Positions 8,861-28,852 of a DNA stretch of 64,000 nucleotides are shown here, piece after piece. Source of the stretch: Patescibacteria group bacterium (GTDB lineage: Bacteria > Patescibacteriota > Patescibacteriia > GWA2-46-9); assembly GCA_041675205.1 (NCBI GenBank), contig JBAYUF010000005.1, forward strand, positions 6,159 to 70,158. Reading direction: 5' to 3'. A program made the translations under genes and the position numbers. Below the pieces are notes generated by a model, which saw only the letters and a list, made by a program, of their open reading frames with translations, ran no database searches and was not told where the DNA came from. The stretch's first letter is position 1. Every line of letters starts with the position of its first letter.

Positions 8861-8862
8861 GT

Positions 8863-11620: not shown

Positions 11621-11694
11621 GGGGGCGTAGTGAAGTGGCATCATGCGGGTCTCCAAAACCTAAGTCGTAGGTTCGATTCCTACCGCCCCTGCCA
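11621..11694 (+). tRNA. tRNA-Trp (anticodon CCA), CCA encoded
   Basis: Acceptor GGGGGCG/CGCCCCT, D-stem GTGA/TCAT, anticodon stem CGGGT/ACCTA with loop CTCCAAA, T-arm GTAGGTTCGATTCCTAC, discriminator G. Confidence 0.75.
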
Positions 11695-11695
11695 G

Positions 11696-11735
11696 AAAAA
11701 TCCGTCACCATTTGGTGTACGGATTTTTCTGTTAT
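11696..11735 (+). terminator. intrinsic terminator hairpin (AAAAATCCGT...ACGGATTTTT), A- and T-flanked
   Basis: Perfect 10-bp stem flanked by an A-run and a T-run. A second, near-identical copy lies at 14652-14690. Confidence 0.7.
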
Positions 11736-11860
11736 TGGAAGGCGGAGTCGAACCTGGGGAAGGGGTCGGGGAACGGGAGTTCCCCGTGGCGGAATTATTC
11801 AAACCGAGGGGTTTGAAAGAGTCGCGGAGCGACGATGGTTCTAGCGAAGCGGATTCTACC

Positions 11861-11882
11861 GCCCCTGCCAGTTTGAGCTAGC
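11861..11882 (+). repeat. direct repeat of the tRNA-Trp 3' end (GATTCTACCGCCCCTGCCAG), att-like
   Basis: Matches 20/21 nt of tRNA-Trp positions 11674-11695. A further partial copy (CATCTACCGCCCTTGCCA) lies at 16262-16280. Confidence 0.7.
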
Positions 11883-11996
11883 ACAAGAAGCATCGTTTCA
11901 AGAGAGTACACGTTAGGATCAATACCCAGGCGAAAGCCTGGGTATTGGCGTATTAGGGCGAAAGAATTGAATTTGCATATATGATATTATGTCCTT

Positions 11997-12755
11997 ATGC
12001 GCGATGATGAACAGCCGGTATGTCCCAACTGTGGTTGGCCACTCCACATAGGCCAGCATGGGCCCCATCCTGAAGATGCTCCGAGAGAACCAACTCATCC
12101 ATTGCCGGAGGATTTGGCTCATCGGTTTGTGAACGGCACTATTTTTAATGATGCTGAAGTAGTAGCTGAAGGAGAACATGGTGATATCTATCGAGGCTTT
12201 ATTCGGGAGGAGCCGAATATTGGTATTCAAGCGGCGAAACTTCGGATAGATTTTCAGAAATCTAGTTCTTCAAATGCTGACACTCCAAAACAGGTACGCT
12301 TTGAATACGTACAGCCGGATAAAGTTGATTCAGAAAGTGATGTATTAGTGGCAGAAATGCATATCGCTCCATGGGGTAAAAATAAATTTGTTTTACAGCA
12401 CCGTTACGTTCAACCTGAGTTTCAAGGTAAACTTGGTCTTGGGACTAAACTTTTGCAGCAGGTAGAAAGTTGGTTAGCGCAAGTGGCGAGTGAAAAGAAA
12501 GAGGATGTGATTCTCGAAGTAGATACAGGCCAGAAGGGAGTGATTTCTTGGGTCGAGAAAAATGGTTTTTCTGTTGATCCTGATCAAGTCAAAGAATTGC
12601 AGGAGGTTGTGGATCATCCTGACCGATATGCGCTCGAAGACGTTCCTGATGTTGACGGATTGACTAAACCCGAATTCATTTTTAGAAATGATACCCCGGG
12701 CAGAACCGTTATTGACGCAGTTCGTTTTACTTTTAGTAAGAAGATTTCTGGTTGA
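11997..12755 (+). CDS. GNAT-family acetyltransferase with N-terminal CxxC zinc-ribbon-like motif
   Basis: CPNCGWPLH N-terminus; GNAT motif A-like FQGKLGLGTKLLQQVE. Confidence 0.5.
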   Translation: MRDDEQPVCPNCGWPLHIGQHGPHPEDAPREPTHPLPEDLAHRFVNGTIFNDAEVVAEGEHGDIYRGFIREEPNIGIQAAKLRIDFQKSSSSNADTPKQVRFEYVQPDKVDSESDVLVAEMHIAPWGKNKFVLQHRYVQPEFQGKLGLGTKLLQQVESWLAQVASEKKEDVILEVDTGQKGVISWVEKNGFSVDPDQVKELQEVVDHPDRYALEDVPDVDGLTKPEFIFRNDTPGRTVIDAVRFTFSKKISG

Positions 12756-12765
12756 ACAGAGTCCG

Positions 12766-12856
12766 CTCGAGGTGCATTGTTTTGATCATTGAAACAAGGC
12801 CCCAAAAGCCTTACTGGTGTTGACCGATTGAGGTTCGATCTCGAGGTGGCCTGCCA
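12766..12856 (+). repeat. structured intergenic repeat, family A, copy 1 (CTCGAGGTG...GGTTCGATCTCGAGGTGGCCTGCCA)
   Basis: Aligned by eye with four other copies. Conserved ends and a central AAGGC/GCCTT hairpin; the 5' hairpin varies in sequence but keeps its structure. Confidence 0.75.
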
Positions 12857-13032
12857 AAAGAGTTCTGTCTGTGAAAGGCCTTTTTAATACAGTAATCATT
12901 GACAAGGGATGCCTTTTTCCATACAGTGCTGCTCGTCGTGGATGTAGAAGATTCGTAAGTTTCAATTCACAACTCAGGGCTTGGTCGGCTCTGACCCACA
13001 GAGAAGCCGAAGAAATTCGGCAAGGAGGAACC

Positions 13033-13614
13033 ATGACCGCAATCCGAAGAGTAGTTGATATGCTGGGGCTCAATTGCTTGCCGTTACTCGTCTCGTTCCG
13101 CAAGGCACATGACGATCGACGGCAGGGAGGTGCTCGCAAGCCGCGTCGCATCGCGCCTCGTGTGCTCATCCGCTGCGGATGCTGCAAGCAACGCGTCGAG
13201 GTGTGTGTTGATGAGCATCCGACGGGAGATCCTCATGTTGACATGCTCGAAATCAACGGCGTCTATGGCAGCATCGACCAGTGGCGACAGGTGCTGCTGC
13301 CACTCCTCGGTGTACCGATGCCGGACGCTGAGCGTCGCGAAGCTCGTCTCGCGCTCGTTCGCCGTCGTATGGTGAACGACGGCAGGATGAGGGAGGCGGG
13401 AGACTGCAGATCGTGTGGCGATCCGGCGGAAGAGCCTGAAGGCGAAGACGTTCCCGCCGGTCTCTGTTCGGAGTGCCAGGATATGCAGAAGAAGGGCTGG
13501 CTCAGCAACACGGAGCCCTCGCGACCACTGGTGCCACGCGCATCGGATCGGAGAGAGCCTCTTACCCGAAGTGGCCCGGCGTATTCGCTTTACGATCCAG
13601 CGCGTCAGGGCTGA
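13033..13614 (+). CDS. Cys-rich hypothetical protein in a high-GC cassette
   Basis: Roughly 62% GC against about 40% in neighbours. Strong SD (AAGGAGGAAccATG). Multiple CxxC pairs (CGCCKQ, CRSCG, CSECQ). The track ORF extends upstream to 12871. Confidence 0.5.
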   Translation: MTAIRRVVDMLGLNCLPLLVSFRKAHDDRRQGGARKPRRIAPRVLIRCGCCKQRVEVCVDEHPTGDPHVDMLEINGVYGSIDQWRQVLLPLLGVPMPDAERREARLALVRRRMVNDGRMREAGDCRSCGDPAEEPEGEDVPAGLCSECQDMQKKGWLSNTEPSRPLVPRASDRREPLTRSGPAYSLYDPARQG

Positions 13615-13626
13615 TCGAATGTGCGT

Positions 13627-13680
13627 GGGGCGGGTTCGGTTGGTTGCAACAAGCTTCCGACCGACCCGCCCTTCGTCCTT
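13627..13680 (+). repeat. GC-rich imperfect palindrome, family B copy 1 (GGGGCGGGTTCGGTTGG-TTGCAACAAGCTT-CCGACCGACCCGCCC)
   Basis: Long imperfect inverted repeat with a conserved loop. A second copy at 24810-24866 follows the other high-GC cassette. Confidence 0.65.
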
Positions 13681-13711
13681 TTCAAACATTTTTTTATTTG
13701 AAGTTACTGAG

Positions 13712-13803
13712 CTCGAGGTGCGGCGTTTCGTTCATCTAAAATAGACCCCAAAAGCCTTACTGGTGTTGACCGATTGGGGGTTCGGTCTCGAGGCGGCCTG
13801 CCA
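13712..13803 (+). repeat. structured intergenic repeat family A, copy 2
   Basis: Same ends (CTCGAGGTGC ... CTCGAGGCGGCCTGCCA); hairpin GACCG...CGGTC fully paired in this copy. Confidence 0.75.
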
Positions 13804-13848
13804 AAAGAGTTCTGCCCGAGGAGGGCGGGACTTTTTTGTTTTTATTTT
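13804..13848 (+). terminator. intrinsic terminator (AAAAGAGTTCTGCCCG-gagga-GGGCGGGACTTTTTT)
   Basis: GC-rich stem with G-U pairs, A-run upstream and T-run downstream. Related copies at 12857-12885 and 16281-16320. Confidence 0.65.
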
Positions 13849-13910
13849 ATTCAGATTCAATTTCTCTGTCTGATACCAGGTCTTTCGGCGAGATATGACA
13901 GTATCAGAAT

Positions 13911-14486
13911 CTATATAAAATCGGTTTTTTGAAAATGCTGCCAGTCTTTTTGTTGCCATGTTCCGCCCCAGTCCCATCCATATTTCTTAAAAAGCTTAAC
14001 CACATGGCCGTCCGCTACTATTGCTCCTGTCGCACCGGGGTCATATGTCGCCCCTGGAGGAAAGACTGTTCCATCAATCGCGACGTAAGGGTTTGTTGCC
14101 GGGTTGATATCTATAGCAAGGCCGTATGAGTGATTAGACGGCTTATTTGTGCCGTAGATCAAGCGGTAGTTAAATGCTGAAGTGTTATTCGCAGCCATGC
14201 TGTTCTCGTCAATCCAGTTGTAGGCGACAATCGGAAGCATTTTTTCAATTGGGAAGCGTATCTCATAAAGTTGCTTGAAAATCTCCAGTACTTCTTGTTG
14301 CACCTTTTTATTTATAACTAGTTGTCCTGTATGTGTTCTTTTGTCAAAAGAAATGTAGTCGATAGTCAAAAGAGCTTGGCTATGACGAACTTCGTCGGGC
14401 ATTTGTCCAGCCAAGGATTCTTCTATTGTCATTGCGCTATCAATAATTTTGCTCATGTTTGCTCTCAGCAAGGTTATAACTTGCAT
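13911..14486 (-). CDS. M15-family zinc D-Ala-D-Ala carboxypeptidase/peptidoglycan peptidase (VanY/endolysin-like)
   Basis: SNHSYGLAIDINP and DWQHF zinc-ligand motifs. Start uncertain (Met at 14486 or 14456); the track ORF runs on into repeat A3. Confidence 0.6.
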   Translation of the reverse strand: MQVITLLRANMSKIIDSAMTIEESLAGQMPDEVRHSQALLTIDYISFDKRTHTGQLVINKKVQQEVLEIFKQLYEIRFPIEKMLPIVAYNWIDENSMAANNTSAFNYRLIYGTNKPSNHSYGLAIDINPATNPYVAIDGTVFPPGATYDPGATGAIVADGHVVKLFKKYGWDWGGTWQQKDWQHFQKTDFI

Positions 14487-14560
14487 ATAAATATTATCAT
14501 AAATAGGAACTCGTGATCGGGCCGTGTCACTTTTGTCACTTTTCACTAAATCCGCAGGTG

Positions 14561-14651
14561 CTCGAGGTGTGTCGTTTTGATCATCGGAAAAAGGTTCCAA
14601 ACGCCTTACTGGTGTTGACCGATTCGGGTTCGGTCTCGAGGTGGCCTGCCA
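14561..14651 (+). repeat. structured intergenic repeat family A, copy 3
   Basis: CTCGAGGTGT...GGTCTCGAGGTGGCCTGCCA, followed directly by the AAAAATCCGT terminator copy. Confidence 0.75.
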
Positions 14652-14690
14652 GAAAAATCCGTCACCGTTTTGGTGGACGGATTTTTCTGT
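14652..14690 (+). terminator. intrinsic terminator, second copy of the AAAAATCCGTCACC...ACGGATTTTT hairpin
   Basis: Near-identical to 11696-11735. Confidence 0.65.
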
Positions 14691-14773
14691 TGTTGGGTGA
14701 AAGGAATCGAACTTGAGAAGGGGGTCGTAACTGCAAGAGGAGAAGAAAAATTAGATTATGATAGAATAAGGTT

Positions 14774-15844
14774 ATGAAAATTGCAGATATCAATAAGTAT
14801 AGTTGGATAAAAAATTGGGGTGGAAACTGGAGTTTCCTGACGTGTTTTTACTTTGCCAATTACTATACAGGTGAAATGTGGAAGCAGATGGGTAAGGGTA
14901 TAAAAAAAGCCGTCATCATTTCGAATAATGGATATGGTTTTTGTTATTTCGATCCTAGTGATCGAGAATTATATGGAAAATACATAGGACTAAAAATAGG
15001 TAAGAATAAAGCGGCAGCTTTGAAATTTAGTAATGAACTAAAAAATCAAGCCGACACCTTGATTGAATATACTCACAAGTTAAGGAAGATGAAGACCGTT
15101 TCCTCAGTAGAGTATTATGATTTTCTGAGAAAATTTCTAGCATATTCTGGCCCGCACATGAGCATTCGGCCTACAGTTGATTATCTGCCAGAAAAACAGG
15201 TGAGACTGGTTCTGCCAATTTTCGAAAAAACTAGATTGTACGTAGAGGATGTTTATTTTGCGACAGAAGTGTTTATGCGTCATTGGGCCGAACAATTATC
15301 TGAACGAATGCGAGTCAATCCAAAATTCATACTCTCTTGCACGCCGTCCGAAATTAAGAATTATTGGCTTCATCAAAAGCTACCACCAACAAAGATTTTA
15401 AAAGCGCGATTTGTATCAAGCGGTATTATTTTTGATCGATTAGAAAACAAGGTTTTTGTTGGCCGCACCGTGGAAAGAATTGAAAAACTTCTTCAAGGCA
15501 GGCCGGACAAAAAAGAAATTAAGGGCCAAACAGCCTACGGAGGATTGGTTAAAGGTAACGCAAGAATCATTTTTAATCCTACGGTTCATAGCGCGCGAGT
15601 TTTTCAGAAGGGCGATATATTAATTACTGGAATGACAAGGCCAGAATTTTTACCTTTGATGCGAAAAGCTGGTGCAGTTGTTACAGATGCTGGAGGTATT
15701 TTAAGTCACGCTGCAATTACAGCCCGTGAAATGAAAATACCGACCGTCATAGGCACTACTGTTGCGACCAAAATTTTCAAAGATGGTGATATGGTTGAAG
15801 TTGATGCCACCCACGGAGTAGTAAGAATACTAAAATCACAGTAG
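14774..15844 (+). CDS. PEP-utilizing-enzyme mobile (phosphohistidine swivel) domain protein with uncharacterized N-terminal domain
   Basis: C-terminal GDILITGMTRPEFLPLMRKAGAVVTDAGGILSHAAITAREMKIPTVIG matches the PEP-utilizer His domain (catalytic His in SHAAI). About 37% GC. Confidence 0.6.
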   Translation: MKIADINKYSWIKNWGGNWSFLTCFYFANYYTGEMWKQMGKGIKKAVIISNNGYGFCYFDPSDRELYGKYIGLKIGKNKAAALKFSNELKNQADTLIEYTHKLRKMKTVSSVEYYDFLRKFLAYSGPHMSIRPTVDYLPEKQVRLVLPIFEKTRLYVEDVYFATEVFMRHWAEQLSERMRVNPKFILSCTPSEIKNYWLHQKLPPTKILKARFVSSGIIFDRLENKVFVGRTVERIEKLLQGRPDKKEIKGQTAYGGLVKGNARIIFNPTVHSARVFQKGDILITGMTRPEFLPLMRKAGAVVTDAGGILSHAAITAREMKIPTVIGTTVATKIFKDGDMVEVDATHGVVRILKSQ

Positions 15845-15935
15845 CTCGAGGTGCATCATTTTTGCCATCAAAATAAGGCCCCAAAAAGCCTCACTGGTGT
15901 TGATTGATTGGGGTTCGATCTCGAGGTGGCCTGCC
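15845..15935 (+). repeat. structured intergenic repeat family A, copy 4
   Basis: Begins immediately after the TAG stop at 15842-15844. Hairpin 3 carries compensatory changes (GATTG/CGATC). Confidence 0.75.
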
Positions 15936-16420
15936 GTAGAAGGAGGAGTGTCCGAATGGCTGTTCGTCTTTTCTGTTATATGAGTTGTCTAGACAGGTGT
16001 GTGTGCCTTCACTATACTACTTACTATATGGATGAATCACTTATCATACAAAAGCTGGTTTCCTTGGATGAAAAGATTAGTGGTATTGCGACTCAAGACA
16101 GCCTGATAAAACTTTCTGATGACATCACGCAGGCACTTGATGACCAGCTTGTTATTTTGCAAAGATTGGATTAAGAGAGGCTTTTCACTATGGAACGAAT
16201 AAAGAGAATTGAAGCGGATGTTGAAGAATTAAAATTACAACTGAAAGTGGCTTAAGAGCTTCGACTTCATCTACCGCCCTTGCCAAAAGAGTTCTGCCCG
16301 TCGGGGCGGGACTCTTTTTACGTGAGAGAATATTGAAAAAGAGGGTATTTTTTATTGTAGAAAGATAGTACAGCGAGAATCAGAGGTATGGTAAACTGAT
16401 TTTGCTGACTAAATGACTCT

Positions 16421-16918
16421 ATGAGAACTAGAAAAGAATTAGAGAGGTATGTTACTTCAGTCGGAAAGGATATTAAGGATTGTAGAATAGCTGTCGGTTC
16501 ACTCATTTTTGACAAGGAAAATAAAGTCATACTACTTGAACGTGGAGATAGTTCACGCGATAGTGCTGGTAAGTTTGAAGGTGTAGGCGGGGGTGTTGAC
16601 GCCGCCGAAGAAAATTTGCACGAAGCGCTACAACGAGAGATACATGAGGAAATCGGTGAAGTTCAGGTTGATATAAAAGAGTTACTCACCGTAATGATTC
16701 TACCAGGCTCGACGGGCGGTACGTGGGTTGTTCCAATTTATTTATGTAGATTAAAAAGCGGGGAGCCAATAGTTATGGAGCCTGATAAGATAGTTAAAAT
16801 ACATCATTTCAAGCTGGGGGACATACCCTACAATAAGCTGAGCGCGTATCAGAAAAGTACGATGGATGCTTATCGTGAGAAGTACGGCCAAGAAGTATTT
16901 GACGTTCTTTCGAGTTGA
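16421..16918 (+). CDS. NUDIX hydrolase
   Basis: Nudix box GGGVDAAEENLHEALQREIHEEIGE. Confidence 0.7.
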   Translation: MRTRKELERYVTSVGKDIKDCRIAVGSLIFDKENKVILLERGDSSRDSAGKFEGVGGGVDAAEENLHEALQREIHEEIGEVQVDIKELLTVMILPGSTGGTWVVPIYLCRLKSGEPIVMEPDKIVKIHHFKLGDIPYNKLSAYQKSTMDAYREKYGQEVFDVLSS

Positions 16919-16939
16919 CTTGCAGAAGGGATTATCTGT

Positions 16940-18424
16940 TTGGACTCACTACGTAAGCGAAATATGAAGTTTGATAATTTTGAAATTTACGAAAGAATTT
17001 ATAGTAGCCATTGGTTTCTGACTTCCTACAATGGAATCGGATTTATTTTTGATTTCCCAAAAATCGGCGGTGGCAATTTTCTAAAGAAAGTCATTTATGT
17101 GATGGAAAATCAGATGTGTCGCTATATATTTAATCATAAGGAGTTTGAGCTGGCTGCCAACTATACTGCCGATAAATTAATCAATAATAACAAATGGAGA
17201 AAAGAAGTTTACGAAAAAATTGATTATTTTACAAAACAGTATTTTGATGCAGGAGAAAATTTAAGAGATTCAAATTTATCTTTGCTCTCTAACAAAGAGC
17301 TAATTAAACGCATTCGACGAATAATTGTTTTTCAGCATTACCATCAAGTCTACAGTGTTTTGGCCAATGGAGTAGTTTTAGATGGCCGCAATCATATGTC
17401 GAATAAAATTCGAGATGAATTACGAAATAATTTAAACTTCCCTCCGAAGTTTGAGAATTATTGGAGCACATTAACTCAAATTACGAGGATGAGTCTTCGG
17501 CAGAAAAAAGATTATGAAATTTCTCTTTTAGCAAAAAAGGTTGGAATACTAACTCAGAAACAAATTGAATCAAAATTAAAAAAGCTGCATAAAGAGTATT
17601 GTTGGCTCGACTATAATAATATGGGACCGGCAACGTCGTTTGATGCGTTTCGACAGCAACTTAAAATGGCAAAGCGGAGCGATAAGGACTTGAATGTACC
17701 GAAGCGTTTGGCAGTTTTGAAGAAAAAACAAAGACAATTGATGTCTACATTGAAATTTAACCGAAGGTCTAGATTTTTGATTGCATTAGCCCAACAGGTG
17801 ATTTGGCAGAAAGGGTATCGAAAGGATGTTCAGTATCATGGATTTTATTGCTATGAGCCCTTGTTGCAAGAGCTCGTAAGAAGAAAAAAAGTTTCTGATT
17901 GGCAAACATTGAGTTTCCTATTCCCTTGGGAACTTGAGGGTTATATAAAATCAAATAAACCGACCACTGCTGAATTGGAACAAAGGCGCAAGCTTTCAGT
18001 CTTTATGGTGACAAGAGCGGGACATTCAATCATGGTAGGAAAAAAAGCAAAGATGACTGTAAAAAAATTTGGATCACTTGAAAATTTTACAAGTGTAACC
18101 GAAGTAAGGGGTCAAGTTGCGTATACAGGATTAGTTCGCGGTAAGGTTAAAATCATTCAAACTCCGTCAGACATGGTCAAAATGAACAAAGGGGATGTTC
18201 TCATGTCCCAGGCAACCAGTCCTGATTTACTGCCCGCAATGAAAAAAGCTGGTGCAATTGTTACGAATACCGGTGGTTTAATTTGCCATGCTGCAATAAC
18301 TTCTCGCGAATTAAAGATTCCTTGTGTAGTTGGCACAGCAAAAGCAACCTTAGTCTTTAAAGACGGAGATTTGGTAGAGGTTGATGCAACTAGCGGAGTC
18401 GTAAAAATAGTAAAATCAGAATAG
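16940..18424 (+). CDS. PEP-utilizing-enzyme mobile-domain protein, paralog 2, with larger uncharacterized N-terminal region
   Basis: C-terminal GDVLMSQATSPDLLPAMKKAGAIVTNTGGLICHAAITSRELKIPCVVG is homologous to the C-terminus of 14774-15844. AT-rich. Confidence 0.6.
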   Translation: MDSLRKRNMKFDNFEIYERIYSSHWFLTSYNGIGFIFDFPKIGGGNFLKKVIYVMENQMCRYIFNHKEFELAANYTADKLINNNKWRKEVYEKIDYFTKQYFDAGENLRDSNLSLLSNKELIKRIRRIIVFQHYHQVYSVLANGVVLDGRNHMSNKIRDELRNNLNFPPKFENYWSTLTQITRMSLRQKKDYEISLLAKKVGILTQKQIESKLKKLHKEYCWLDYNNMGPATSFDAFRQQLKMAKRSDKDLNVPKRLAVLKKKQRQLMSTLKFNRRSRFLIALAQQVIWQKGYRKDVQYHGFYCYEPLLQELVRRKKVSDWQTLSFLFPWELEGYIKSNKPTTAELEQRRKLSVFMVTRAGHSIMVGKKAKMTVKKFGSLENFTSVTEVRGQVAYTGLVRGKVKIIQTPSDMVKMNKGDVLMSQATSPDLLPAMKKAGAIVTNTGGLICHAAITSRELKIPCVVGTAKATLVFKDGDLVEVDATSGVVKIVKSE

Positions 18425-18514
18425 CTCGAGGTGCGTCGTTTTCGTCTTCGAAACAAGGCTCCAAACGCCTTACTGGTGTTGACCGACCGGGGTTCGATCT
18501 CGAGGTGGCCCGCA
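18425..18514 (+). repeat. structured intergenic repeat family A, copy 5
   Basis: Starts right after the TAG stop. Its 3' end is degenerate (GGCCCGCA instead of GGCCTGCCA). A terminator hairpin CTGCC-ttaaac-GGCAG-TTTTTT follows at 18523-18551. Confidence 0.7.
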
Positions 18515-18598
18515 GCAACAAATCTGCCTTAAACGGCAGGTTTTTTATTACTCAAAACGACAGGCATCGTGAAGTTAGAACTGTGATAGAATGTATGT

Positions 18599-18934
18599 AT
18601 GACCTTTTTACAAAAAACTATATTTGTTCTGATTATCCTGCTTATCCCCATAGCCTTTTTGCTAGGAGGTTTTCTTGGCAATTTGAAATATGCAGCACCT
18701 TTGGCACACTGTAATCCTGCCTCCGTGCCATATGAAAACGCTGAAACCCAAGAAGTATCTCTACCGATGAGTACTATGTTCAGAAACTATTATGGACATA
18801 CGTATAATTTTAGTGGTCATATTGTGCCTAAAGGGGTCAGTCTAAAAGATTATTATTCAACATTTAACTCTGGTGGTTTTCATTATCTTAAAACTACCAA
18901 TGGAGAGGTAGTCGCTTGTGGATTTTATAAGTAG
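18599..18934 (+). CDS. small membrane-anchored hypothetical protein
   Basis: Hydrophobic N-terminus. ATG lies 7 nt after an extended -10 element (TGATAGAAT, 18584-18592), implying a leaderless transcript. Confidence 0.45.
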   Translation: MTFLQKTIFVLIILLIPIAFLLGGFLGNLKYAAPLAHCNPASVPYENAETQEVSLPMSTMFRNYYGHTYNFSGHIVPKGVSLKDYYSTFNSGGFHYLKTTNGEVVACGFYK

Positions 18935-21023: not shown

Positions 21024-21024
21024 T

Positions 21025-21692: not shown

Positions 21693-22373
21693 TTGATGAA
21701 AGACAAAGTCATTGTTATTACGGGTGGAAGCAAAGGCCTCGGCAAGGGTCTCGCTAATATTTTGGCAAATAACAGTAATAGAGTAGTCATTTGCGCTCGA
21801 CATGAAGTTGAATTAGATAAGACTGCGAAAGAGATTGGCGCAATCCCTTTTCTTGCGGATGTGGCAAAAGAAGAGGATGTAGAATTGCTTGCCGCCTATG
21901 CTGTAAAAGAATTTGGATGCATTGATTTATGGATAAACAATGCCGGCATTTGGTTGCCCCATGCATCGATTGAAGACACCGATCTAAAAAAAGTGCAAGA
22001 GATGTTTTTGGTTAATGTGTTTGGTACGATGAATGGCTCAAAGATTGCGCTTACGCAAATGAGGAAACAGGGTCATGGAACGGTCGTTAACATTATTTCA
22101 ACAAGCGGATTAATTGCTCGGCCTCAGTCGTCAGGATATGCGGCAAGTAAGTGGGCAGTTCGTGGATTTACTGATTCAATTCGTGAAGAAGTTAAGGGCA
22201 CGGATATCCATGTTCTGAGTGTGTACCCCGGGGGCATGCAAACAGATCTATTTGGCGAACAGAAACCGGAAGAGATGAATAAGTATATGACGTTCGAATC
22301 AGTGGCAGAGAAAATTATTGAAAATTTAGATGCCCTGGAACCATTGACGGAACTAATCATCAAGCGCACGTAA
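21693..22373 (+). CDS. SDR-family short-chain dehydrogenase/reductase
   Basis: TGGSKGLGKG cofactor motif, NNAG, and catalytic YAASK. Confidence 0.75.
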   Translation: MMKDKVIVITGGSKGLGKGLANILANNSNRVVICARHEVELDKTAKEIGAIPFLADVAKEEDVELLAAYAVKEFGCIDLWINNAGIWLPHASIEDTDLKKVQEMFLVNVFGTMNGSKIALTQMRKQGHGTVVNIISTSGLIARPQSSGYAASKWAVRGFTDSIREEVKGTDIHVLSVYPGGMQTDLFGEQKPEEMNKYMTFESVAEKIIENLDALEPLTELIIKRT

Positions 22374-22396
22374 GTTCTGTTCGTTTTTGATAGAAG

Positions 22397-23347
22397 GTGA
22401 CGATGATTCTAGTCCCGCTGTGCGGGACGGATTCAACTATTTCCGAGCCGCTCCTTGTTACGATACGAGACATAGTTGAGTACCTCAAAATCCTATTTAT
22501 GCGATACGATTACAAAATTAGCCGCGCTGTTTCATTCGCCATTGAAACGCACGAAATTAACCAAAAACAAAAGCGGAAGGGAAAAGATATTGCCTACATC
22601 ACGCATCCTCTCACTGTTGGGCTTATATTGTCGCGCTGCGGTGCTAGTGACGAGGTCGTAGTGGCGGGCATACTGCATGATACTGTTGAGGATAGCGTTG
22701 ACGATCACAAAGTAACTATCGCGATGCTTCAAGAACGTTTTGGTAAGAAAGTTGCTGAACTCGTTACTAGTGTCACCGAAACAAACCGAGCGCTGCCATG
22801 GAGTGAGCGCAAGCGTGAAGCACTCGAACATGTTGCATCATTTTCACATGAGGCGTTGCTGGTGAAATCCGCCGATGTCATTAGTAATGCAACCGAAATC
22901 ATAGATGACCACAAGCATGATGGCGACTCAGTGTTTGCTCGTTTTAATGCGCCAAAGATTGATGTTCTTCAGAACTACTTATGGGTAATTACGGCCATTA
23001 TTAAATGTTGGCCAGACAGCCCACTTGCAGAAGACTTGCGTTCCGTTGCTAATGGACTACAGGATATGGCTGCGCTTCATTTCATGCAGAACCATCGAGC
23101 TATTGTTATTGAGTATCGGGATTACAGTGAAGACATGCCTATTCAGTGCCCGGTGTGTGATTGGAGTGGTACGCCCAAGGAAAGTGGACTCCTCAATACT
23201 GACAGCCAGGCAGCGCTTGATGTCTCCTGCCGTAATTGCGACAAGATTCTGCTCGTCGTAGAGTATGCCTCTGGCAATGAGGTGGGTAACGAAAGTGAGA
23301 TTGCATTTATTCCCAAGATGAAAAAGAAAATGGACGAAAGTAGCTAG
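22397..23347 (+). CDS. HD-domain phosphohydrolase (RelA/SpoT-type ppGpp-hydrolase-like) with C-terminal CxxC...CxxC zinc ribbon
   Basis: AVSFAIETHE...GKDIAYITHPLTVGLIL...GILHDTVED (HD motif); CPVCDW...CRNCDK at the C-terminus. True start may be the Met at 22499. Confidence 0.55.
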   Translation: MTMILVPLCGTDSTISEPLLVTIRDIVEYLKILFMRYDYKISRAVSFAIETHEINQKQKRKGKDIAYITHPLTVGLILSRCGASDEVVVAGILHDTVEDSVDDHKVTIAMLQERFGKKVAELVTSVTETNRALPWSERKREALEHVASFSHEALLVKSADVISNATEIIDDHKHDGDSVFARFNAPKIDVLQNYLWVITAIIKCWPDSPLAEDLRSVANGLQDMAALHFMQNHRAIVIEYRDYSEDMPIQCPVCDWSGTPKESGLLNTDSQAALDVSCRNCDKILLVVEYASGNEVGNESEIAFIPKMKKKMDESS

Positions 23348-23611
23348 GCATTGCTTCGAAGCACTTTCTTTTTAAGCTAGAGTGATCCTGGATCAAGCAC
23401 CGCAAGCGTTTTCAAGTCTGGTACATAAAATCCGTTTGACTGCCGTATACTGGTTCTAACGTCCTCTATGATGCCCGCCAGTTTGAGCTAGCACGAGAAG
23501 CATCGTTTCAAGATAGTTAGAAATCAACACCCAGGTGAAAGCCTGGGTGTTGATGTTTGATAGGTAAACCAGAAAAGTTTGGAACTGTGATAAAATTACA
23601 TAATGCAAGAT

Positions 23612-24101
23612 GTTAACTTTTCAGTTGATGGAAAAAAGCTCACAGGTAACACTTTTTTCCAGAAACACTTCAGTTAAAAAATCCAGCCGCTTTGATTATT
23701 CATGGATGGGAGAGTAAACAGGACAGAGGTTTTTTATTAGCGGAGGCGCTCGCTGAACAACGTGACTAAAAAGTTTTATCACAAATTGCCAGGAGGGGGA
23801 GTTGAGGAAGGTGAAGACATTGAGACTGGATTGCGTCGAGAATCGTTTGAGGAGATTGGTTGTACAATTGAGTATATTCATGAGCTAGGAACTATTGAAG
23901 AATATCGAAATGAATGCAGAAACGGGGGAGGTCGGCATCAAATCTCACATTGCTTCATCGCCGAAATTGCTGGAGATACTTGAAGTTGCTATCGAGAAAT
24001 TAGAAAGCGAGGCAAGTGTTGAAGATTATGAGGGCAAATTTATAAGATTAAGAGATCTTTTGTTTCTTAAAGAAGCAAGTTCGTGGATGCAGATCAATTG
24101 A
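23612..24101 (+). pseudogene. NUDIX hydrolase pseudogene (at least two frameshifts)
   Basis: The Nudix box LPGGGVEEGEDIETGLRRESFEEIG lies in one frame while the N-terminal and C-terminal segments continue in other frames (23612-23677, 23762-23983, 23895-24101). Confidence 0.55.
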
Positions 24102-24259
24102 AGCCCCTTCTTGATAGCTGTTGTTCTGCTGTGAGGTGGTTTTTAATAATAAAGTAATCATTGACAAAGAAAGTTTTTTTCAATAAGGTGTTGCTCGTCG
24201 TGGATGCGGAACGATTTTTAAAAACGAAGAAAGATTCAAATATTCGGTACGGAGGAATC

Positions 24260-24778
24260 ATGAACGAGGTGAAAACATTGGCACAGGTCTTGGCAAGGAT
24301 GACCTCAGAATTCATGCAAAGCGAAGCATTCAGGTTTCTCGCGAACCGGAGGCAGTATACGAATGAAGTGGTGCGTCGCGTCGATACATCCATCCCTGAG
24401 CTGAGGGTATTCGTTCAGGCAGTTATCTGTGTCTTCGGTAACAGAGGTGCTAGTGGGCTCACATTTGCCCTGGGTATCATCTTCCACTTGGTGGACCAGG
24501 ATACACCAAGTCGGGTGTGGCTTGAAAAGCACTTGCTGTTGCTTGATGACGAGATTGTCGAGAGGGCCGTCGACACGTTGCAGGAGGAGCCCCGCTGTCT
24601 CGTTGCTGCGGGTGAGCGTTCATCCGCAGGTGCTTATGAGGTTGCGGGCACTATAGAAGGCATGGGTACTTTCGAGGGTGAAGATGCAGCCAGGGGCGCA
24701 TTTGCAATCTTCGGATTACTGCAACAACTCGACAATGCACCCGCTGATGACGATCCTGGCTCTGCGTACTTGATTTAA
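24260..24778 (+). CDS. hypothetical protein in the second high-GC cassette
   Basis: About 60% GC. Strong SD (ACGGAGGAATCATG). Upstream promoter and leader are homologous to those of the 13033 cassette. Confidence 0.5.
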   Translation: MNEVKTLAQVLARMTSEFMQSEAFRFLANRRQYTNEVVRRVDTSIPELRVFVQAVICVFGNRGASGLTFALGIIFHLVDQDTPSRVWLEKHLLLLDDEIVERAVDTLQEEPRCLVAAGERSSAGAYEVAGTIEGMGTFEGEDAARGAFAIFGLLQQLDNAPADDDPGSAYLI

Positions 24779-24809
24779 TCACCACGGGTAACACTCAGTG
24801 GTGCTGACA

Positions 24810-24866
24810 GGGGGGCGGTCTGATTGGTTGCAACAAGCTTCCAAACGGCCCGCCCCTCGTCCTGTC
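24810..24866 (+). repeat. GC-rich imperfect palindrome, family B copy 2
   Basis: GGGGGCGGTCTGATTGG-TTGCAACAAGCTT-CCAAACGGCCCGCCCC, with the same loop as 13627-13680. Confidence 0.65.
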
Positions 24867-24908
24867 CAAATATTTAATTTTCATTTGAAACCATAGTTCT
24901 CAAGGTGG

Positions 24909-24991
24909 CCTGCCATCAGACATGACCCGTGAACTCGGGTCTTTTTTGGTAGAGAGGAGTAGCACATGGAACTGTGATAGTATTCGTACGT
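24909..24991 (+). promoter_or_regulatory. terminator-promoter junction module, copy 3 (extended -10 TGATAGTAT)
   Basis: GGCCTGCCATCAGACATGACCCGTGAACTCGGGTC...CACATGGAACTGTGATAGTAT. ATG at 24992 lies 8 nt after the -10. Confidence 0.55.
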
Positions 24992-25615
24992 ATGGAACTA
25001 TTTCTAACATCGAGCGTTCACGCTGTGGCGCAAGACATTGCCAAGAAGATTAACCTTGTTAAGGCAAACAAGCTAGTGTTTATCACTACTGCCGCTGAGC
25101 CGAAAGAGGAAGGGGATTTAACCTGGCTTTATAACGATAGACAGGCGTTGGTCGATGCTGGCTTTAATGTCGTTGATTATACAATTACTAATAAGAACAA
25201 AAGCGAGCTAGAGCGTGACCTTGAGGGTTTCGACTACATCTATCTCTCAGGAGGGAATACCGCTTATCTTTTACAACAATCTCAAAAATCAGGATTTGTT
25301 GCTTTGGTAAAAGAACTCGTTCAGAAGAAAGGTAAAGTCTACATCGGGACTAGTGCAGGCTCAGTCATTGCCGGGCCGAGACTCTCTGATTACTACATTG
25401 ACGAATCAACAGAGTTGGAAGACAAAAAAGGATATGGGTTTGTAAATTTTACAATTGTTCCGCATTGGGGTTCTGGTGATTTTAGAAAAACGTACTTAGG
25501 CGAGAGATTGAAGATTGTGTATAAAGAAGATCAAGTGCCCCTACTTCTTCTTACTGATAATCAATACGTTCACATAAAAGATGAGCAGATGAAGATCATT
25601 GATGTGAAAGAGTAA
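24992..25615 (+). CDS. S51-family peptidase (dipeptidase E/cyanophycinase-like)
   Basis: LSGGNTAYLL and GTSAGSVIAGP motifs. Confidence 0.6.
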   Translation: MELFLTSSVHAVAQDIAKKINLVKANKLVFITTAAEPKEEGDLTWLYNDRQALVDAGFNVVDYTITNKNKSELERDLEGFDYIYLSGGNTAYLLQQSQKSGFVALVKELVQKKGKVYIGTSAGSVIAGPRLSDYYIDESTELEDKKGYGFVNFTIVPHWGSGDFRKTYLGERLKIVYKEDQVPLLLLTDNQYVHIKDEQMKIIDVKE

Positions 25616-25629
25616 ATCGTGAGTTTTTT

Positions 25630-25740
25630 ATGAAGTTGCTAAAAACAATAAGTGATACAGAAAACCCACCCTGGGGGTGGGTGGGTGGGAAAAGGTGAGG
25701 ATATAGAGACCGGGTTGCGCACGAGACAATCTGCTAGAAG
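25630..25740 (+). pseudogene. NUDIX gene remnant carrying a G-quadruplex-type G-run
   Basis: GEDIETGLRTRQ Nudix-box fragment, homologous to 23800-23860, placed out of frame behind GGGGGTGGGTGGGTGGG (25673-25690). Confidence 0.45.
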
Positions 25741-25822
25741 ATAGTGAGTAGCAACCTTGTTGAATAGTAGGACAGCGATTATTCCGTAAGGCTTGATGTA
25801 GGACGGAGCCCCATACCTCGAT

Positions 25823-26128
25823 TCAGGGGCCTAAGGTGAGCAACAACAATTGAAACAGCAAGGGAACACCGAGCAACACGATACCCCAGCCAATACCTCG
25901 CCCGAGTTGGATCCATGGAAAGGGGAGCCTTTTGGCCAGTACACCCGGAAGCAAGATGCCTATTACGATCAGAGGCAACCAGATAATCTCGCTGCGAACA
26001 CTCGACCTGAATGTAGCCTGAAAGAACAAGAAAACGGTAACAGTGAGCAGGAGTAGAGAAGGGCTTACCAGAAAGCCGACTACGTATTGAATCAACGGGT
26101 AACGATATCGGGGTGTCATATGAATCAA
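25823..26128 (-). CDS. small multi-TM hypothetical membrane protein
   Basis: Strongly hydrophobic 101-aa ORF, preferred over the overlapping 169-aa frame. Low confidence. Confidence 0.3.
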   Translation of the reverse strand: MIHMTPRYRYPLIQYVVGFLVSPSLLLLTVTVFLFFQATFRSSVRSEIIWLPLIVIGILLPGVLAKRLPFPWIQLGRGIGWGIVLLGVPLLFQLLLLTLGP

Positions 26129-26334
26129 GTATACGCTTGGTGGACCGGTGACTGTGTGGATAAGTGGTGTCGAGCCGGCCGGAGAGTGAACGTCGGGATC
26201 TTGGCGGTTCCAGCCGTCGACGGGGCGGATTGGCTTCGTTCAGCAATTCTTCCGACTGACCTGCTCCTCGTCCTTCTCTGACCTCCAAAATAGTTCTCGC
26301 TAGGATGAAATTTTAATTATGTTAGAATAAAATC

Positions 26335-27015
26335 ATGAAAGATAAAGTCATCGTTATTACTGGCGGTAGTAGAGGTCTTGGGAAAGGGATGGCACAGCTT
26401 CTTGCGTCTAAAAAGAATACAGTAGTAATTTGTTCAAAAAATAAAACAGAAGTTGAAAAGACGGCGAAAGACATAAATGCCACTGCCTTCGTTGCGGACG
26501 TTACCAAAGAAAGCGATGTTAAAGCCCTGGCTGATTTTACAGTGAAACAATTTGGAGGTATTGATGTTTGGATAAACAATGCTGGCGTATGGTTGCCACA
26601 TGCAACAATTGAAGAGGTAGACATGAAACGAGTAGACGGTATCTTTGCGGTAAATGTGTTCGGCACTATGTATGGCGCAAAAACCGCCTTGCTTCAAATG
26701 AGGAAACAGCAATGCGGAACCGTTGTTAATATCGTTTCTACGAGTGGTCTTGATGCGAGGCCGACATCCTCAATCTATGCAGCCAGTAAATGGGCGGTAC
26801 GAGGCTTTACGGATTCCATCAGAGAAGAGTACAGAGAGACGAACATTAAGATACTGGCAGTATATCCAGGCGGAATGCAGACGGCTTTGTTTGATGAGAA
26901 AAAGCCAAATGATATAAACACATACATGAGCTTTGAATCCGTTGCAGAAAAAATCGTTGCCAACCTGGAGTTGGCGGAACCTTTAGAGGAATTGATTATT
27001 AAACGGCCATCTTGA
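26335..27015 (+). CDS. SDR-family short-chain dehydrogenase/reductase, paralog of 21693-22373
   Basis: TGGSRGLGKG, NNAG, YAASK. About 55-60% identical to the first SDR over its full length. Confidence 0.75.
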   Translation: MKDKVIVITGGSRGLGKGMAQLLASKKNTVVICSKNKTEVEKTAKDINATAFVADVTKESDVKALADFTVKQFGGIDVWINNAGVWLPHATIEEVDMKRVDGIFAVNVFGTMYGAKTALLQMRKQQCGTVVNIVSTSGLDARPTSSIYAASKWAVRGFTDSIREEYRETNIKILAVYPGGMQTALFDEKKPNDINTYMSFESVAEKIVANLELAEPLEELIIKRPS

Positions 27016-27025
27016 GGGCGGGTAT

Positions 27026-27373
27026 ATGAAACATTACATGAAATTATCAGCAGAACCTTTTCAAAAAATTAAGAGCGGCTCCAAAGTAATAGAGTCACGA
27101 TTATATGATGACAAGAGAAAACTAATTTCGGTGGGCGATGAAATTGAATTTAGTGAGAATGAGTATCCAGAAAGTAAGGTATGCACGAAAGTTTTAGAAC
27201 TCCTACGTTATCCAACCTTCGCTGAGCTTTTTGCAGACAATAATCCGGTTCTATTCGGTGACAGCAGCAGAGATTCTCTTTTGAAAATAATTAGAAAGTA
27301 TTACTCCGACGACGACGAGAAAAAGTTTGGGGTGGTTGGCATTCGTATTGCTTTAGTTGACAAAACCGCATAA
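27026..27373 (+). CDS. ASCH-domain protein
   Basis: PUA-like ASCH pattern (F..I..G.K..E.R; GDEIEF). Confidence 0.5.
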   Translation: MKHYMKLSAEPFQKIKSGSKVIESRLYDDKRKLISVGDEIEFSENEYPESKVCTKVLELLRYPTFAELFADNNPVLFGDSSRDSLLKIIRKYYSDDDEKKFGVVGIRIALVDKTA

Positions 27374-27469
27374 ATTCAGTAGGTTTTCGCCGTACCCAAT
27401 CACGGGTACCAAAACCCTAGTTGCTTAAGGGTTGATGCCCTAGCAACACACAGAGAGGGGTTCTTTCAA

Positions 27470-28792
27470 ATGGTAGACATTCGAAATGTCACACGCGATG
27501 ACTTACCTGTTGTCGCCGAGATGATGCACGAGGCGCTCGATCCGTACTACGGAGGAGATCACCGTGCACACGCGAAACGTATCGTCGAAACCGCCGCAGA
27601 AGGGAGTGCGGATACGAAGGGGCATTTTTCAGCAGCGCAGATCATGTACGTGGCGGAAGAAGAAGGGCAGATTATCGGCCTTCTCAACTTCGTGGTCAAG
27701 CATCAAGGGACGCTGAAGGTCAGTCCGCTCATCGTCCTCGAAGCTGCGCGAGGGAAAGGCGTCGGTCGTCTTCTGTTGCAGAAAATGGAAGCGTACGCGA
27801 AGGAGTACGGTATTCGGCAGATTTACTGTACCGTTGCAGCTCAGAACAAGCTCGCGTTGTCGTACTTCCTCGGCCATGGCTTCATTCGGGCGGGCATGGC
27901 GCATGGACACTACCGGCCCAACGCAGACGAGTGCATGCTGTACAAAGTTGTTGAACATGGACCGCTTCCCGAGGAACGTCTCATCTCCGTGCTACCGATG
28001 ATTGACGACGAAAAACCGCAAGTGCGCGCGTTCGTCAAGGCTCGTCTTGCGCCATACTTCGAAGGCGTCGATGACCGGTGGATGGATGCTCTCTTCGCAG
28101 GGTACGCGCGCAAAGACAGTCGTGACCCCAATGAAAAGTACAAGATCATTTGGGTTGCCAAAGCATCCGACGGCACTGTCCTTGGTGTTGCCGCGGCCAC
28201 ACCGAAGAAGGGGGAGCCAATCAAGTTGATGCCACTCGTGGCAGAAGACATCCGGGCATTCTCAGCCCTCGTTGCGGAGCTCCCTGGTTTACTCCGCGAG
28301 TATGGGCATAAGCTCTACACGCATACCGTACCAACGAGTGTTGAAGCTGAGACGCTTCAGCACCATGGATGGCAGGTGGAAGCGATGATGCCCGAGGCAT
28401 ACAAATGTGGCGTGGTCACCCAACAATGGGGACTCGCACTAGAGGAGAAGGTTATGAAAACAATGCGAGTGAAGCGACAGTATTTCGACGCGATCATGGC
28501 TGGCACTAAGCCGATCGAAGCTCGCGTGGGGTACGACAACATCCGGCGGATCCAGGGCGGAGACAATATTCAGTTGGAATGTGGACGACTCTCGGGGGTC
28601 GTGCAAGTTGTCGACGTACGCGTCTACCGCACGTTCGAGGAGATGCTCCAGACGGAAAATGCTAGGAACATCGTTCCTGACAATCCGGTTGGCGCGCTGG
28701 AAGTTCTCCAGCACATCTATCCACCCGAGAAGGAAAAGCTTGGTGTCTACGTGTTTGAGCTGATGGTGCTGAGGGGTCCGGTTTCTCGGTAG
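27470..28792 (+). CDS. GNAT acetyltransferase fused to a C-terminal ASCH domain (high-GC gene)
   Basis: N-terminal GNAT motif ARGKGVGRLLL; C-terminal YFDAIMAGTKPIEAR ASCH pattern. About 60% GC. Confidence 0.55.
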   Translation: MVDIRNVTRDDLPVVAEMMHEALDPYYGGDHRAHAKRIVETAAEGSADTKGHFSAAQIMYVAEEEGQIIGLLNFVVKHQGTLKVSPLIVLEAARGKGVGRLLLQKMEAYAKEYGIRQIYCTVAAQNKLALSYFLGHGFIRAGMAHGHYRPNADECMLYKVVEHGPLPEERLISVLPMIDDEKPQVRAFVKARLAPYFEGVDDRWMDALFAGYARKDSRDPNEKYKIIWVAKASDGTVLGVAAATPKKGEPIKLMPLVAEDIRAFSALVAELPGLLREYGHKLYTHTVPTSVEAETLQHHGWQVEAMMPEAYKCGVVTQQWGLALEEKVMKTMRVKRQYFDAIMAGTKPIEARVGYDNIRRIQGGDNIQLECGRLSGVVQVVDVRVYRTFEEMLQTENARNIVPDNPVGALEVLQHIYPPEKEKLGVYVFELMVLRGPVSR

Positions 28793-28808
28793 GTCGGTTT
28801 CGTAGAGC

Positions 28809-28852
28809 GGGCGGTTATCAGTAATGGTAACCGCCCGCCAGTTTTTTCCTAC
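28809..28852 (+). terminator. intrinsic terminator (GCGGGCGGTTA...TAACCGCCCGC + T6)
   Basis: 11-bp perfect stem followed by TTTTTT. Confidence 0.75.

Follow-up and report, generated by a model that had tools for sequence, protein, structure and literature searches.

The islands of Dehalococcoides that lie in tandem at ssrA offer, by analogy, a precedent for tandem accretion at a tRNA-like 3′ end: 20-bp repeats of the ssrA 3′ end mark their boundaries, an additional conserved motif lies just 5′ of the repeat, their content varies strongly among strains, and some units lack integration genes and are proposed to be cis-mobilizable (PMC3146451). A six-gene integration module, the serine recombinase DsiB included, is present in most of these islands, and the T-loop is their place of insertion (PMC3146451). 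Here, we describe an array of small gene cassettes that begins at the 3′ end of the tRNA-Trp gene in a 64,000-nucleotide stretch of DNA (hereafter the window) from GenBank assembly GCA_041675205.1 (contig JBAYUF010000005.1, positions 6,159 to 70,158), whose host is an Uhrbacteria-like member of the Patescibacteria. Like the Dehalococcoides islands, the array consists of tandem units directly 3′ of a tRNA or tRNA-like gene, with units lacking an integrase. It differs from them in the small size of the units (0.2-2.6 kb), none of which has a recombinase, in its modular arms bearing terminators and promoters, and in a strictly common core of 7 nt at the CCA end, rather than 20 bp.

Several other systems are comparable. 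Chromosomal integron arrays and integrase-less clusters of attC sites are likewise long and one-directional, with mostly one-gene cassettes of about 1 kb, a short common boundary motif, a family of cassette-terminal repeats despite unrelated neighbouring genes, rapid turnover between relatives and a content of accessory enzymes. However, the array described here has no intI, attI or attC (with its R and L boxes), its boundary is the tRNA-Trp 3′ end, each cassette has its own promoter and terminator rather than a common Pc, and both cassette ends belong to conserved families. With tRNA-targeting islands it shares an intact tRNA and a distal direct repeat of the tRNA 3′ end, but not an element-encoded integrase. 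Cis-mobilizable elements (CIMEs) are decayed remnants, several kb in length, that stem from integrative and conjugative elements (ICEs) or integrative and mobilizable elements (IMEs), and adjoin a functional element. Both CIMEs and ICE-IME accretion resemble the array in stacking att-flanked, integrase-less units at one site with the enzyme acting in trans, whereas here no helper element is seen and the units look built as expression cassettes, not as remnants. The dif/Xer modules – pdif modules and integrative mobile elements exploiting Xer (IMEX), such as the CTX phage – are also small, with short sites and a host recombinase encoded elsewhere, and some dif/Xer-type sites are hairpin-forming palindromes; by inspection, the core and arms described here are unlike dif (an 11-6-11 imperfect palindrome), and the target is a tRNA end. 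The array is set apart by units of a single gene, by the complete lack of integrases, by a core of 7 nt located at the CCA end, and by expression arms that are modular. A limited full-text literature search, aimed mostly at arrays of this kind in Patescibacteria or at tRNA-linked cassette arrays, turned up none that had been described, although this does not prove that none has been.

The tRNA-Trp gene (CCA anticodon; 11621-11694, + strand; ARAGORN, and Rfam tRNA with 59.1 bits) is intact, and the primary junction core is formed by its last 7 nt, CCTGCCA (11688-11694), made up of U72, G73 and the encoded CCA. This heptamer is present 18 times in the window, compared with 6.58 +/- 2.63 times in shuffled sequences, and 18 or more copies were reached by none of 100 shuffles. 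Eight exact cores on the + strand end at 11694, 11870, 12856, 13803, 14651, 19023, 21621 and 24915, and none is found on the minus strand of the 11688-24915 stretch; the one-strand expectation for these 13.2 kb is 0.68 (Poisson P = 6e-7). Four more are degenerate and end at 15936 (CCTGCCG), 16285 (CCTTGCCA), 18514 (CCCGCA) and 23480 (CCCGCCA). All 12 exact and degenerate cores are intergenic and on the tRNA strand, and the other ten CCTGCCA copies in the window are inside coding sequence with unrelated flanks. An initial annotation of this DNA had counted at least 11 recurrences of the tRNA-derived motif at module boundaries; the twelve cores agree with this, and the frequency exceeds chance. 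It had also placed a direct repeat of the tRNA tail at 11861-11882 and a diverged copy at 16262-16280; both repeats are real, although their coordinates are 11852-11870 (GATTCTACCGCCCCTGCCA, an 18/19 match) and 16266-16285 (CATCTACCGCCCTTGCCA). Tail repetition is limited to tRNA-Trp, and the tails of the other four tRNAs of the window are unrepeated.

The flanks of these junctions fall into recurring families on both sides. A junction joins a left arm of 17-48 nt, similar to a tRNA 3′ end, to a right arm that is a terminator, often with a promoter, and there are about four left-arm and six right-arm families. The four right-hand families of the initial annotation are all genuine, two (R5 and R6) have been added, and the left-hand families are newly separated. 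The left arm resembles the part of tRNA-Trp from the T-loop to the CCA, with the blocks ACTGnnGnTGA, GGTTYnA and CTCnAnGnTGsCCTGCCA. Its Module A form is 91 nt long and is present in five copies, each starting GCTCGAGGTG, with its 5′ end directly after a stop codon in two copies (15845 and 18424) and 10 nt after one in a third (12765). The 3′ 48 nt of Module A are homologous to the A′ arm (ACTGCCGnTGAATAATGGTTCTAACGTCCTCCACGATGCCCTGCCA) and share with it the blocks ACTGnnGnTGA, GGTTYnA and GnTGsCCTGCCA. Some left arms are almost identical with the tRNA tail (the repeats at 11852-11870 and 16266-16285), and a minimal arm of 17 nt (CTCAAGGTGGCCTGCCA) suffices at 24896-24915. Module A looks like this minimal arm with an 81-nt insert between 9-nt direct repeats (CTCGAGGTG).

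The closest relatives by a neighbouring protein are a Patescibacteria metagenome-assembled genome (contig JBAZXG010000001, locus L004; hereafter JBAZXG) and Candidatus Uhrbacteria CG10 (contig PFET01000009, locus L008). JBAZXG represents Module A by its 3′ part only, and an A″ arm, which is A′ with an 18-nt hairpin insert, is found only in the relatives. Matches to an nhmmer profile of the left arm are confined to the arrays of the three genomes and to the + strand, and within the 64 kb and about 30 kb of related loci all arm copies lie in tRNA-Trp arrays on one strand, unlike the many scattered copies expected of dispersed repeats such as MITEs. In public collections the strict Module A pattern matched one species genome (JBAZXG); a relaxed pattern gave two matches in metagenome contigs, both chance occurrences in high-GC coding DNA, and five patterns for the arms and the tRNA tail gave zero matches on viral contigs. 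Module A has no Rfam match at the gathering score or at E <= 10, the sole Rfam match being the tRNA itself, and its consensus fold has a compensatory change in 2 of 25 predicted pairs and an unfavourable covariation term (+0.68 kcal/mol); Module A was therefore rejected as a tRNA-like or other known RNA. Its hairpin loop CTCCAAA resembles the tRNA-Trp anticodon loop, which we regard as a lead only. Separately, the arms of the relatives contain, in both orientations, an inserted small hairpin, CCGCCAGAGGCGG(A), that was not seen in the window (L004 16930-16950 and 18380-18400; L008 1835-1850, 1950-1965 and 3238-3256) and that looks like a miniature repeat colonizing the arms.

The right arms differ in structure. 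R1 is the tRNA's own terminator plus an inverted fragment similar to the tRNA tail; the R2 terminator begins AAAGAGTTCTGCCCG; R3 combines a terminator with a promoter; R4 begins GTTTGAGCTAGCAC and has a GNRA hairpin in both window copies; R5 is a terminator followed by GGCATCGTGGAG and then a promoter; and R6 is a long hairpin with a promoter-like site. The promoter (AACTGTGATAGAAT) is of the extended -10 type and is confined to the array region within the window; it ends 6-8 nt 5′ of the ATG, so the cassette mRNAs are probably leaderless. High-GC cassettes have a separate promoter unit (TTGACA-17-TACAGT) and a leader of about 100 nt with a Shine-Dalgarno site (12885-13040 and 24147-24259), and a common 65-nt GC-rich hairpin, D3, 3′ of the stop codon. 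D3 is present at 13627-13691, 24811-24875 and 26222-26286, and because the third copy overlaps the start of a minus-strand 169-aa open reading frame (ORF), that ORF may be spurious. These high-GC dialect modules are nested within ordinary arms.

Some joined sites are long imperfect palindromes, most clearly tRNA/R1 (z = -7.1 for the single-stranded DNA fold of unit 0, the first unit of the array) and A′/R5 in CG10 (L008 1800-1949; z = -8.9), and R5 contains the exact reverse complement of the A′ block CTCCACGATGCC. They recall the folded single-strand substrates of attC and the CTX phage site. A general rule in which the right arm carries an inverted copy of the left arm was rejected on an all-pairs test, and since the relation is not general the palindromes are kept as a lead and not as the basis of a mechanism.

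The arms re-assort at the core. Comparison of 30 nt on each side of 24 junctions from the three genomes, with the core excluded, shows that pairs of junctions with similar left arms share right arms in 2 of 15 cases, and that those with similar right arms share left arms in 2 of 16. Left and right families across a junction are unassociated (permutation p = 0.78). Within one cassette, an association exists between the right arm that opens it and the left arm that closes it (p = 0.016), with all four R4 cassettes ending in A-type arms and all four R5 cassettes ending in A′ or A″ arms. The inherited unit is therefore the cassette – right arm, gene and left arm – and not the spacer. Which cassettes come to be neighbours is random, with the 7-nt core as the constant point of the switch; the families change over precisely at that core in at least 14 different left/right combinations, and 7 nt is too short for homologous recombination. 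Arm polarity is independent of gene orientation, because a + strand Module A sits beside a minus-strand M15 peptidase gene, and with its polarity kept there Module A is a DNA boundary rather than a 3′ untranslated region (UTR) element. All four R5 junctions have CTGC(A/G) in place of CTGCCA, which suggests that the right arm takes the last one or two bases along with it and that exchange would occur to the left of the final CA.

Comparison with the relatives shows that the site is variable between conserved flanks. The left flank is syntenic in the three genomes (TPR gene, tRNAs, LRV-repeat gene, rpmG, tRNA-Trp). JBAZXG has at least nine cassettes after tRNA-Trp, with the same arm families and running to the contig end. 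CG10 has two units and a single gene between tRNA-Trp and a GH3 glycosidase gene, a distance of about 1.6-1.7 kb compared with 25 kb in the window, where at least 12 cassettes and about 12 kb of eroded or module-free sequence lie between the flanks. The CG10 cassette consists of a 365-aa gene followed by an A″ arm and core, then by an R2 terminator and immediately by the GH3 gene, and HI0933-like genes lie beyond GH3, as they do in the window after 36.6 kb. The initial annotation had looked to relatives for an empty-site variant, and CG10 supplies a near-empty one; the same genes in the same order, which would have told against its reading, are not seen, and the contents are almost entirely different. 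Its proposal that secE-nusG had been displaced from behind tRNA-Trp is not supported, since the neighbour common to CG10 and the window is the GH3 gene, and there were no NusG-type matches among the window ORFs scanned. A gene for a small coiled-coil protein is the sole cassette gene common to the window and JBAZXG (75.5% identity over 192 nt, to L004 17246-17436), and its neighbours differ on both sides. All else that the two arrays have in common is arm sequence, with 84-93% identity, compared with 63-75% for core coding DNA.

Other homologues were less informative. Neighbourhoods differ around GH3 homologues in other genomes and around the more distant LRV homologues (loci L009 and L010), and none of the homologues of the PEP-utilising-domain proteins carries arms, though the family is widespread in Patescibacteria and DPANN-type archaea. 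The PEP-utilising family also forms long runs of paralogues, for example nine swivel-domain genes in 14 kb, mostly in tandem, at positions 1-14054 of locus L011, which is an unrelated contig from a metagenome (GCA_020049755.1). Population variation is unreadable from the GH3 homologues because the 100%-identical matches are from the same organism: ENA contig k141_1282698 (ERZ27247358) belongs to the window organism. Over 13746-25844, a high-GC cassette included, this contig and a Logan contig are identical at every position. The arms break assemblies, with the Logan contig ending in a Module A copy (13746) and the JBAZXG contig ending within its array (L004 19330).

We lean, by a modest degree, towards the view that small mobile cassettes accumulated at the tRNA-Trp 3′ end through site-specific recombination at the tRNA-derived core, with an enzyme encoded elsewhere. 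A cassette extends from core to core, with a right arm whose terminator closes the preceding unit, usually then a promoter, then one or more genes, and then a left arm; in a circular form the two arms would be joined as one site. Strands would be exchanged within or next to the 7-nt core by a recombinase that a helper element or another part of the genome encodes, with the tRNA end or any existing junction as partner, so that the tRNA stays intact and every event adds one junction. Insertion would be serial and conservative, with an integron-like or CIME-like logic, and the array may be active at present. The initial annotation had likewise proposed serial site-specific integration into the tRNA 3′ end: a variable array starting from the CCA end, with a tRNA-derived core, is what we find, and the recombination itself we infer. 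Rather more tentatively, and at somewhat less than an even chance, the locus could represent an integron-like gene-capture platform of Uhrbacteria-like Patescibacteria, in which the tRNA-Trp 3′ end is the primary attachment site, the arms of 17-48 nt are analogues of attC, the cassettes are self-contained expression units, and a recombinase encoded elsewhere acts, possibly, on folded palindromic sites.

A number of observations weigh against recombination at the core as the origin of the array. Pfam searches of about 70 ORFs and six-frame phmmer searches, the latter with reference sequences as queries, found no tyrosine, serine or HUH recombinase in the 64-kb window – as the initial annotation had said of the tyrosine and serine types – nor in the related loci of JBAZXG (19 kb) and CG10 (11 kb). 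We saw no excised circles, empty junctions, population variants or altered cassette orders, the sole second assembly found being 100% identical. Inspection revealed no inverted core-type binding sites immediately beside the core, as in a simple tyrosine-recombinase site, and the inverted-repeat relation between arms, strong for tRNA/R1, A′/R5 and A′/R4, lacks significance when all pairs are taken together. The family labels in the association tests were assigned by the analyst, with n = 21, and arms were found in three genomes only (the window, JBAZXG and CG10). Finally, the shared coiled-coil gene is as diverged as core genes, and with this 75.5% nucleotide identity part of the array may be old and vertically inherited. 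Among other mechanisms considered, single-strand transposition like that of IS200/IS605 insertion sequences (as in palindrome-associated transposable elements, PATE) was rejected, as the hairpins differ between arm families and there is no TnpA-like segment, and no supporting feature was found for Xer/dif-like or homing-endonuclease mechanisms.

A different explanation requires no dedicated site-specific recombinase. The modules could be mosaic intergenic repeats (terminator/promoter units), comparable with BOX, Correia and REP/BIME elements (repetitive extragenic palindromes and bacterial interspersed mosaic elements), that are kept for transcription or RNA processing, with growth by local duplication, homologous recombination between the repeats and natural transformation, and with a core conserved because a tRNA-like 3′ end undergoes processing or shields the transcript. 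We consider this unlikely, but with a real share of the probability: the right arms are credible terminators and promoters, the arms abut stop and start codons, some cassettes are paralogous (68% protein identity for two SDRs and 43% for two PEP-utilising proteins), Module A lies between 9-nt direct repeats with an interior-less minimal arm present at 24896-24915, several composites are long palindromes, and no recombinase was found in the window or related loci. Such repeats would hardly switch families exactly at a core too short for homologous recombination, in at least 14 combinations, and the remaining approximately 47 kb of the window lack the modules, as do the related loci in their core parts. 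Moreover, Module A keeps its polarity beside a minus-strand gene, where it has no 3′ UTR role, and it lacks an Rfam match even at E <= 10 and has weak covariation. Partial repeats of a tRNA 3′ end are also the classic signature of ordinary tRNA-targeting elements – prophages, islands or IMEs – that insert in tandem with their own integrases, and islands in tandem with 20-bp ssrA repeats are documented (PMC3146451). The cassettes could be scars of such elements, later reduced to one or two genes, and pseudogene fragments and eroded distal junctions do indicate decay; however, a dozen or more independent reductions would be needed in three genomes, each sparing the two arms and roughly one gene and losing the integrase every time, the two arms of a cassette go together as a pair, no integrase fragment is found in any frame of the window, L004, L006 or L008, none of the at least 12, nine and two units of the three genomes has an integrase, and no phage-like or conjugation genes were found among the cassette genes. 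We regard this origin as decidedly unlikely.

Two further explanations are much less probable. One-gene cassettes of about 1 kb with a common 7-nt boundary motif would fit a classical integron array with its integrase beyond the window (a cluster of attC sites lacking an integron-integrase, CALIN), and accessory enzymes such as GNAT and NUDIX proteins are like those of chromosomal integron arrays. This we think highly improbable, given that by inspection there is no GTTRRRY/RYYYAAC core and no R″-L″/L′-R′ imperfect palindrome at the cassette ends, that the conserved motif derives from a tRNA 3′ end, that the cassettes bear their own promoters and terminators, and that rpmG, the LRV-repeat gene, tRNAs and the TPR gene, and no intI, lie upstream of the first cassette. 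The absence of intI and of attC architecture, with a core that is the tRNA end, accords with the earlier statement that the site is tRNA-derived rather than a classical attI or attC. An assembly chimera, joining pieces of different organisms through common repeats, would account for the heterogeneous GC, and repeats do break assemblies here (the Logan and JBAZXG contig ends). It is scarcely credible, because two independently found assemblies are identical over 13746-25844 and the same architecture recurs in two other genomes; the high-GC genes also carry the same flanking arms as low-GC genes.

The array in the window contains at least 12 units of 0.2-2.6 kb, usually with one gene each, and all are described on the + strand. 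Unit 0 (11695-11870) lacks an ORF and consists of an R1 arm – the tRNA terminator hairpin, the inverted tRNA-3′-like fragment TGGAAGGCGGAGTCGAACC and a GGGGAAC/GTTCCCC hairpin – and the tRNA-like left arm at 11852-11870; it is 88.95% identical to unit 0 of CG10 over 181 nt. Cassette 1 (11871-12856) has an R4 arm with its GNRA hairpin at 11918-11947, a GNAT acetyltransferase gene (11997-12755) and Module A (12765-12856). Cassette 2 (12857-13803) starts with a degenerate R2 arm, followed by the high-GC promoter unit D6 (12885-12949), its Shine-Dalgarno leader and a high-GC ORF to which no function was assigned (13033-13614; GC is 0.58 for the longer ORF 12871-13614), and ends with D3 and Module A (13711-13803). 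In cassette 3 (13804-14651) the R2 terminator (13802-13838) and Module A (14560-14651) flank the M15 peptidase gene (13911-14456, minus strand). Cassette 4 (14652-15936) has a second R1 copy (14652-14727), a gene for a PEP-utilising (swivel) domain protein (14774-15844) and a Module A (15845-15936) that abuts the stop codon and ends in the CCTGCCG core.

Cassette 5 (15937-16285) has an R6 arm with its promoter-like site at 15990-16018, the coiled-coil protein gene (16028-16256) and the second tRNA-like left arm. This gene has an in-frame TAA (16172-16174) that is CAA in the JBAZXG homologue (102 aa), and is a candidate for either a pseudogene or read-through. Cassette 6 (16286-18514), with an R2 terminator, contains a NUDIX gene (16421-16918) and the second PEP-utilising domain gene (16940-18424), and ends in Module A (18424-18514) with the CCCGCA core. 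Cassette 7 (18515-19023) has an R5 arm, with its terminator at 18520-18543, GGCATCGTGAAG and the extended -10 promoter at 18579-18592, and encodes a 111-aa ORF (18599-18934) followed by an A′ left arm (18977-19023, ending CTCCACGATGCCCTGCCA); it is 84.7% identical to L004 over 124 nt. Cassette 8 (19024-21621) has an R3 arm (19024-19099) and three genes, for an aminotransferase (19100-20278), a DHDPS-like protein (20265-21023) and a DUF6190 protein (21025-21510), and its left arm ends GGTTCAAACTTGTGTACTAGCCCTGCCA. Cassette 9 (21622-23480) also has an R3 arm, with an R3 remnant at 22371-22394 between SDR (21696-22373) and HD-domain (22403-23347) genes, and an A′ left arm (23434-23480) with the CCCGCCA core. 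Cassette 10 (23481-24915) begins with the second R4 copy, whose GNRA hairpin has compensatory changes, continues with frameshifted alpha/beta-hydrolase and NUDIX fragments (about 23600-24100), a D6 promoter (24147-24211), a high-GC ORF (24260-24778) and D3, and ends with the minimal left arm.

The extent of the array beyond 24915 is uncertain. The distal part (24916-28840, + strand) has a decaying grammar, with an R3 arm, an S51 peptidase gene (24992-25615), a NUDIX-box remnant (about 25670-25720), the third D3 copy, a second SDR gene (26335-27015), an ASCH gene (27026-27373) and a high-GC GNAT-ASCH gene (27470-28792). A terminator at 28807-28838 has a 3′ side that reads CCCGCCA followed by G, an eroded junction (28834-28840), and a second degenerate junction, CCCCAGTCA joined to the R2-like AAAAAGTTCTGCTCATGAGGGCGAAACTTTTG, lies at 33656-33696 on the + strand, with the eroded junction itself at 33656-33664. 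These eroded junctions suggest that older cassettes continue towards the GH3 gene, and a remnant of an array-type promoter (AACTGTGATAAACT) is found at 32722-32735. The GH3 gene itself (36663-38495, minus strand) is the conserved right flank and is 77.6% identical to that of CG10 over 1414 nt.

In total, the cassettes encode two GNAT acetyltransferases, two swivel-domain proteins, two SDRs and several ORFs without a match; the array ORFs of unassigned function have no NCBIfam or PDB sequence match, and PADLOC gave only weak domain-level matches to defence systems. Taken in 500-nt windows, GC spans 33% to 60%, and gene by gene it spans 36% to 58%; genes lie on both strands, in keeping with the initial description of cassettes in both orientations and of very different GC. 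The GC spread, the two expression styles and the pseudogene fragments fit a foreign origin followed by decay.

Upstream of tRNA-Trp, the first 11.6 kb of the window are core genes, including secY, map, recO, lysS, scpAB, a D-Ala-D-Ala carboxypeptidase gene and tpiA, followed by the TPR gene, three tRNAs, the gene for the LRV-repeat membrane protein and rpmG. The gap between rpmG and tRNA-Trp is itself variable between genomes (window 11500-11620; L008 1349-1570; L004 about 11240-11925): it contains an intact 23S-rRNA-IVP (four-helix-bundle) gene in CG10 and a 35-nt remnant of that gene in the window (11531-11565), and in JBAZXG a LAGLIDADG-like ORF ends just 5′ of tRNA-Trp. In the more distant genome of locus L009, a LAGLIDADG_3 ORF (9517-10179) ends 4 nt 5′ of tRNA-Leu, and this tRNA is followed by a terminator and an inverted tRNA-tail-like fragment (TGGAAGGGGACTCGAAC; 10270-10345), a motif as in R1, with a similar terminator again 1.9 kb downstream (about 12120-12170), after small ORFs. 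The L009 region may represent a weaker counterpart of the array, at a different tRNA and in a different lineage. The spacers of the tRNA-Thr/tRNA-Tyr/tRNA-Thr group in the window (9881-10215) are hairpin-rich and in part conserved in JBAZXG, which has an extra 80-aa GIY-YIG ORF between these tRNAs. A 63-nt hairpin element (AATCAGAAGACCCCCGCA...CGGGGTCTT), without an Rfam match, is present at 62043-62104 in the window and at 2948-3009 in L004 with 89% identity, and has different neighbours, lying 5′ of a PDZ-protein gene in the former and 5′ of lysS in the latter.

Patescibacteria have tiny genomes, and their gain and loss of accessory genes is poorly understood. As the arms are short, well defined and more conserved than core genes, the idea of a cassette platform is directly testable, and because the arms break short-read assemblies, metagenome-assembled genomes probably show too few such arrays; the breaks suggest that the arrays are truncated there systematically. 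Should the system be active, the arm/core pair together with its enzyme could be developed into a means of site-specific insertion in organisms that at present lack genetic tools. Gene flux in Patescibacteria would have a compact route in a dedicated hot spot where ready-to-express cassettes of one gene are stacked behind an essential tRNA, and such a platform would be an independent solution to the problem solved by integrons.

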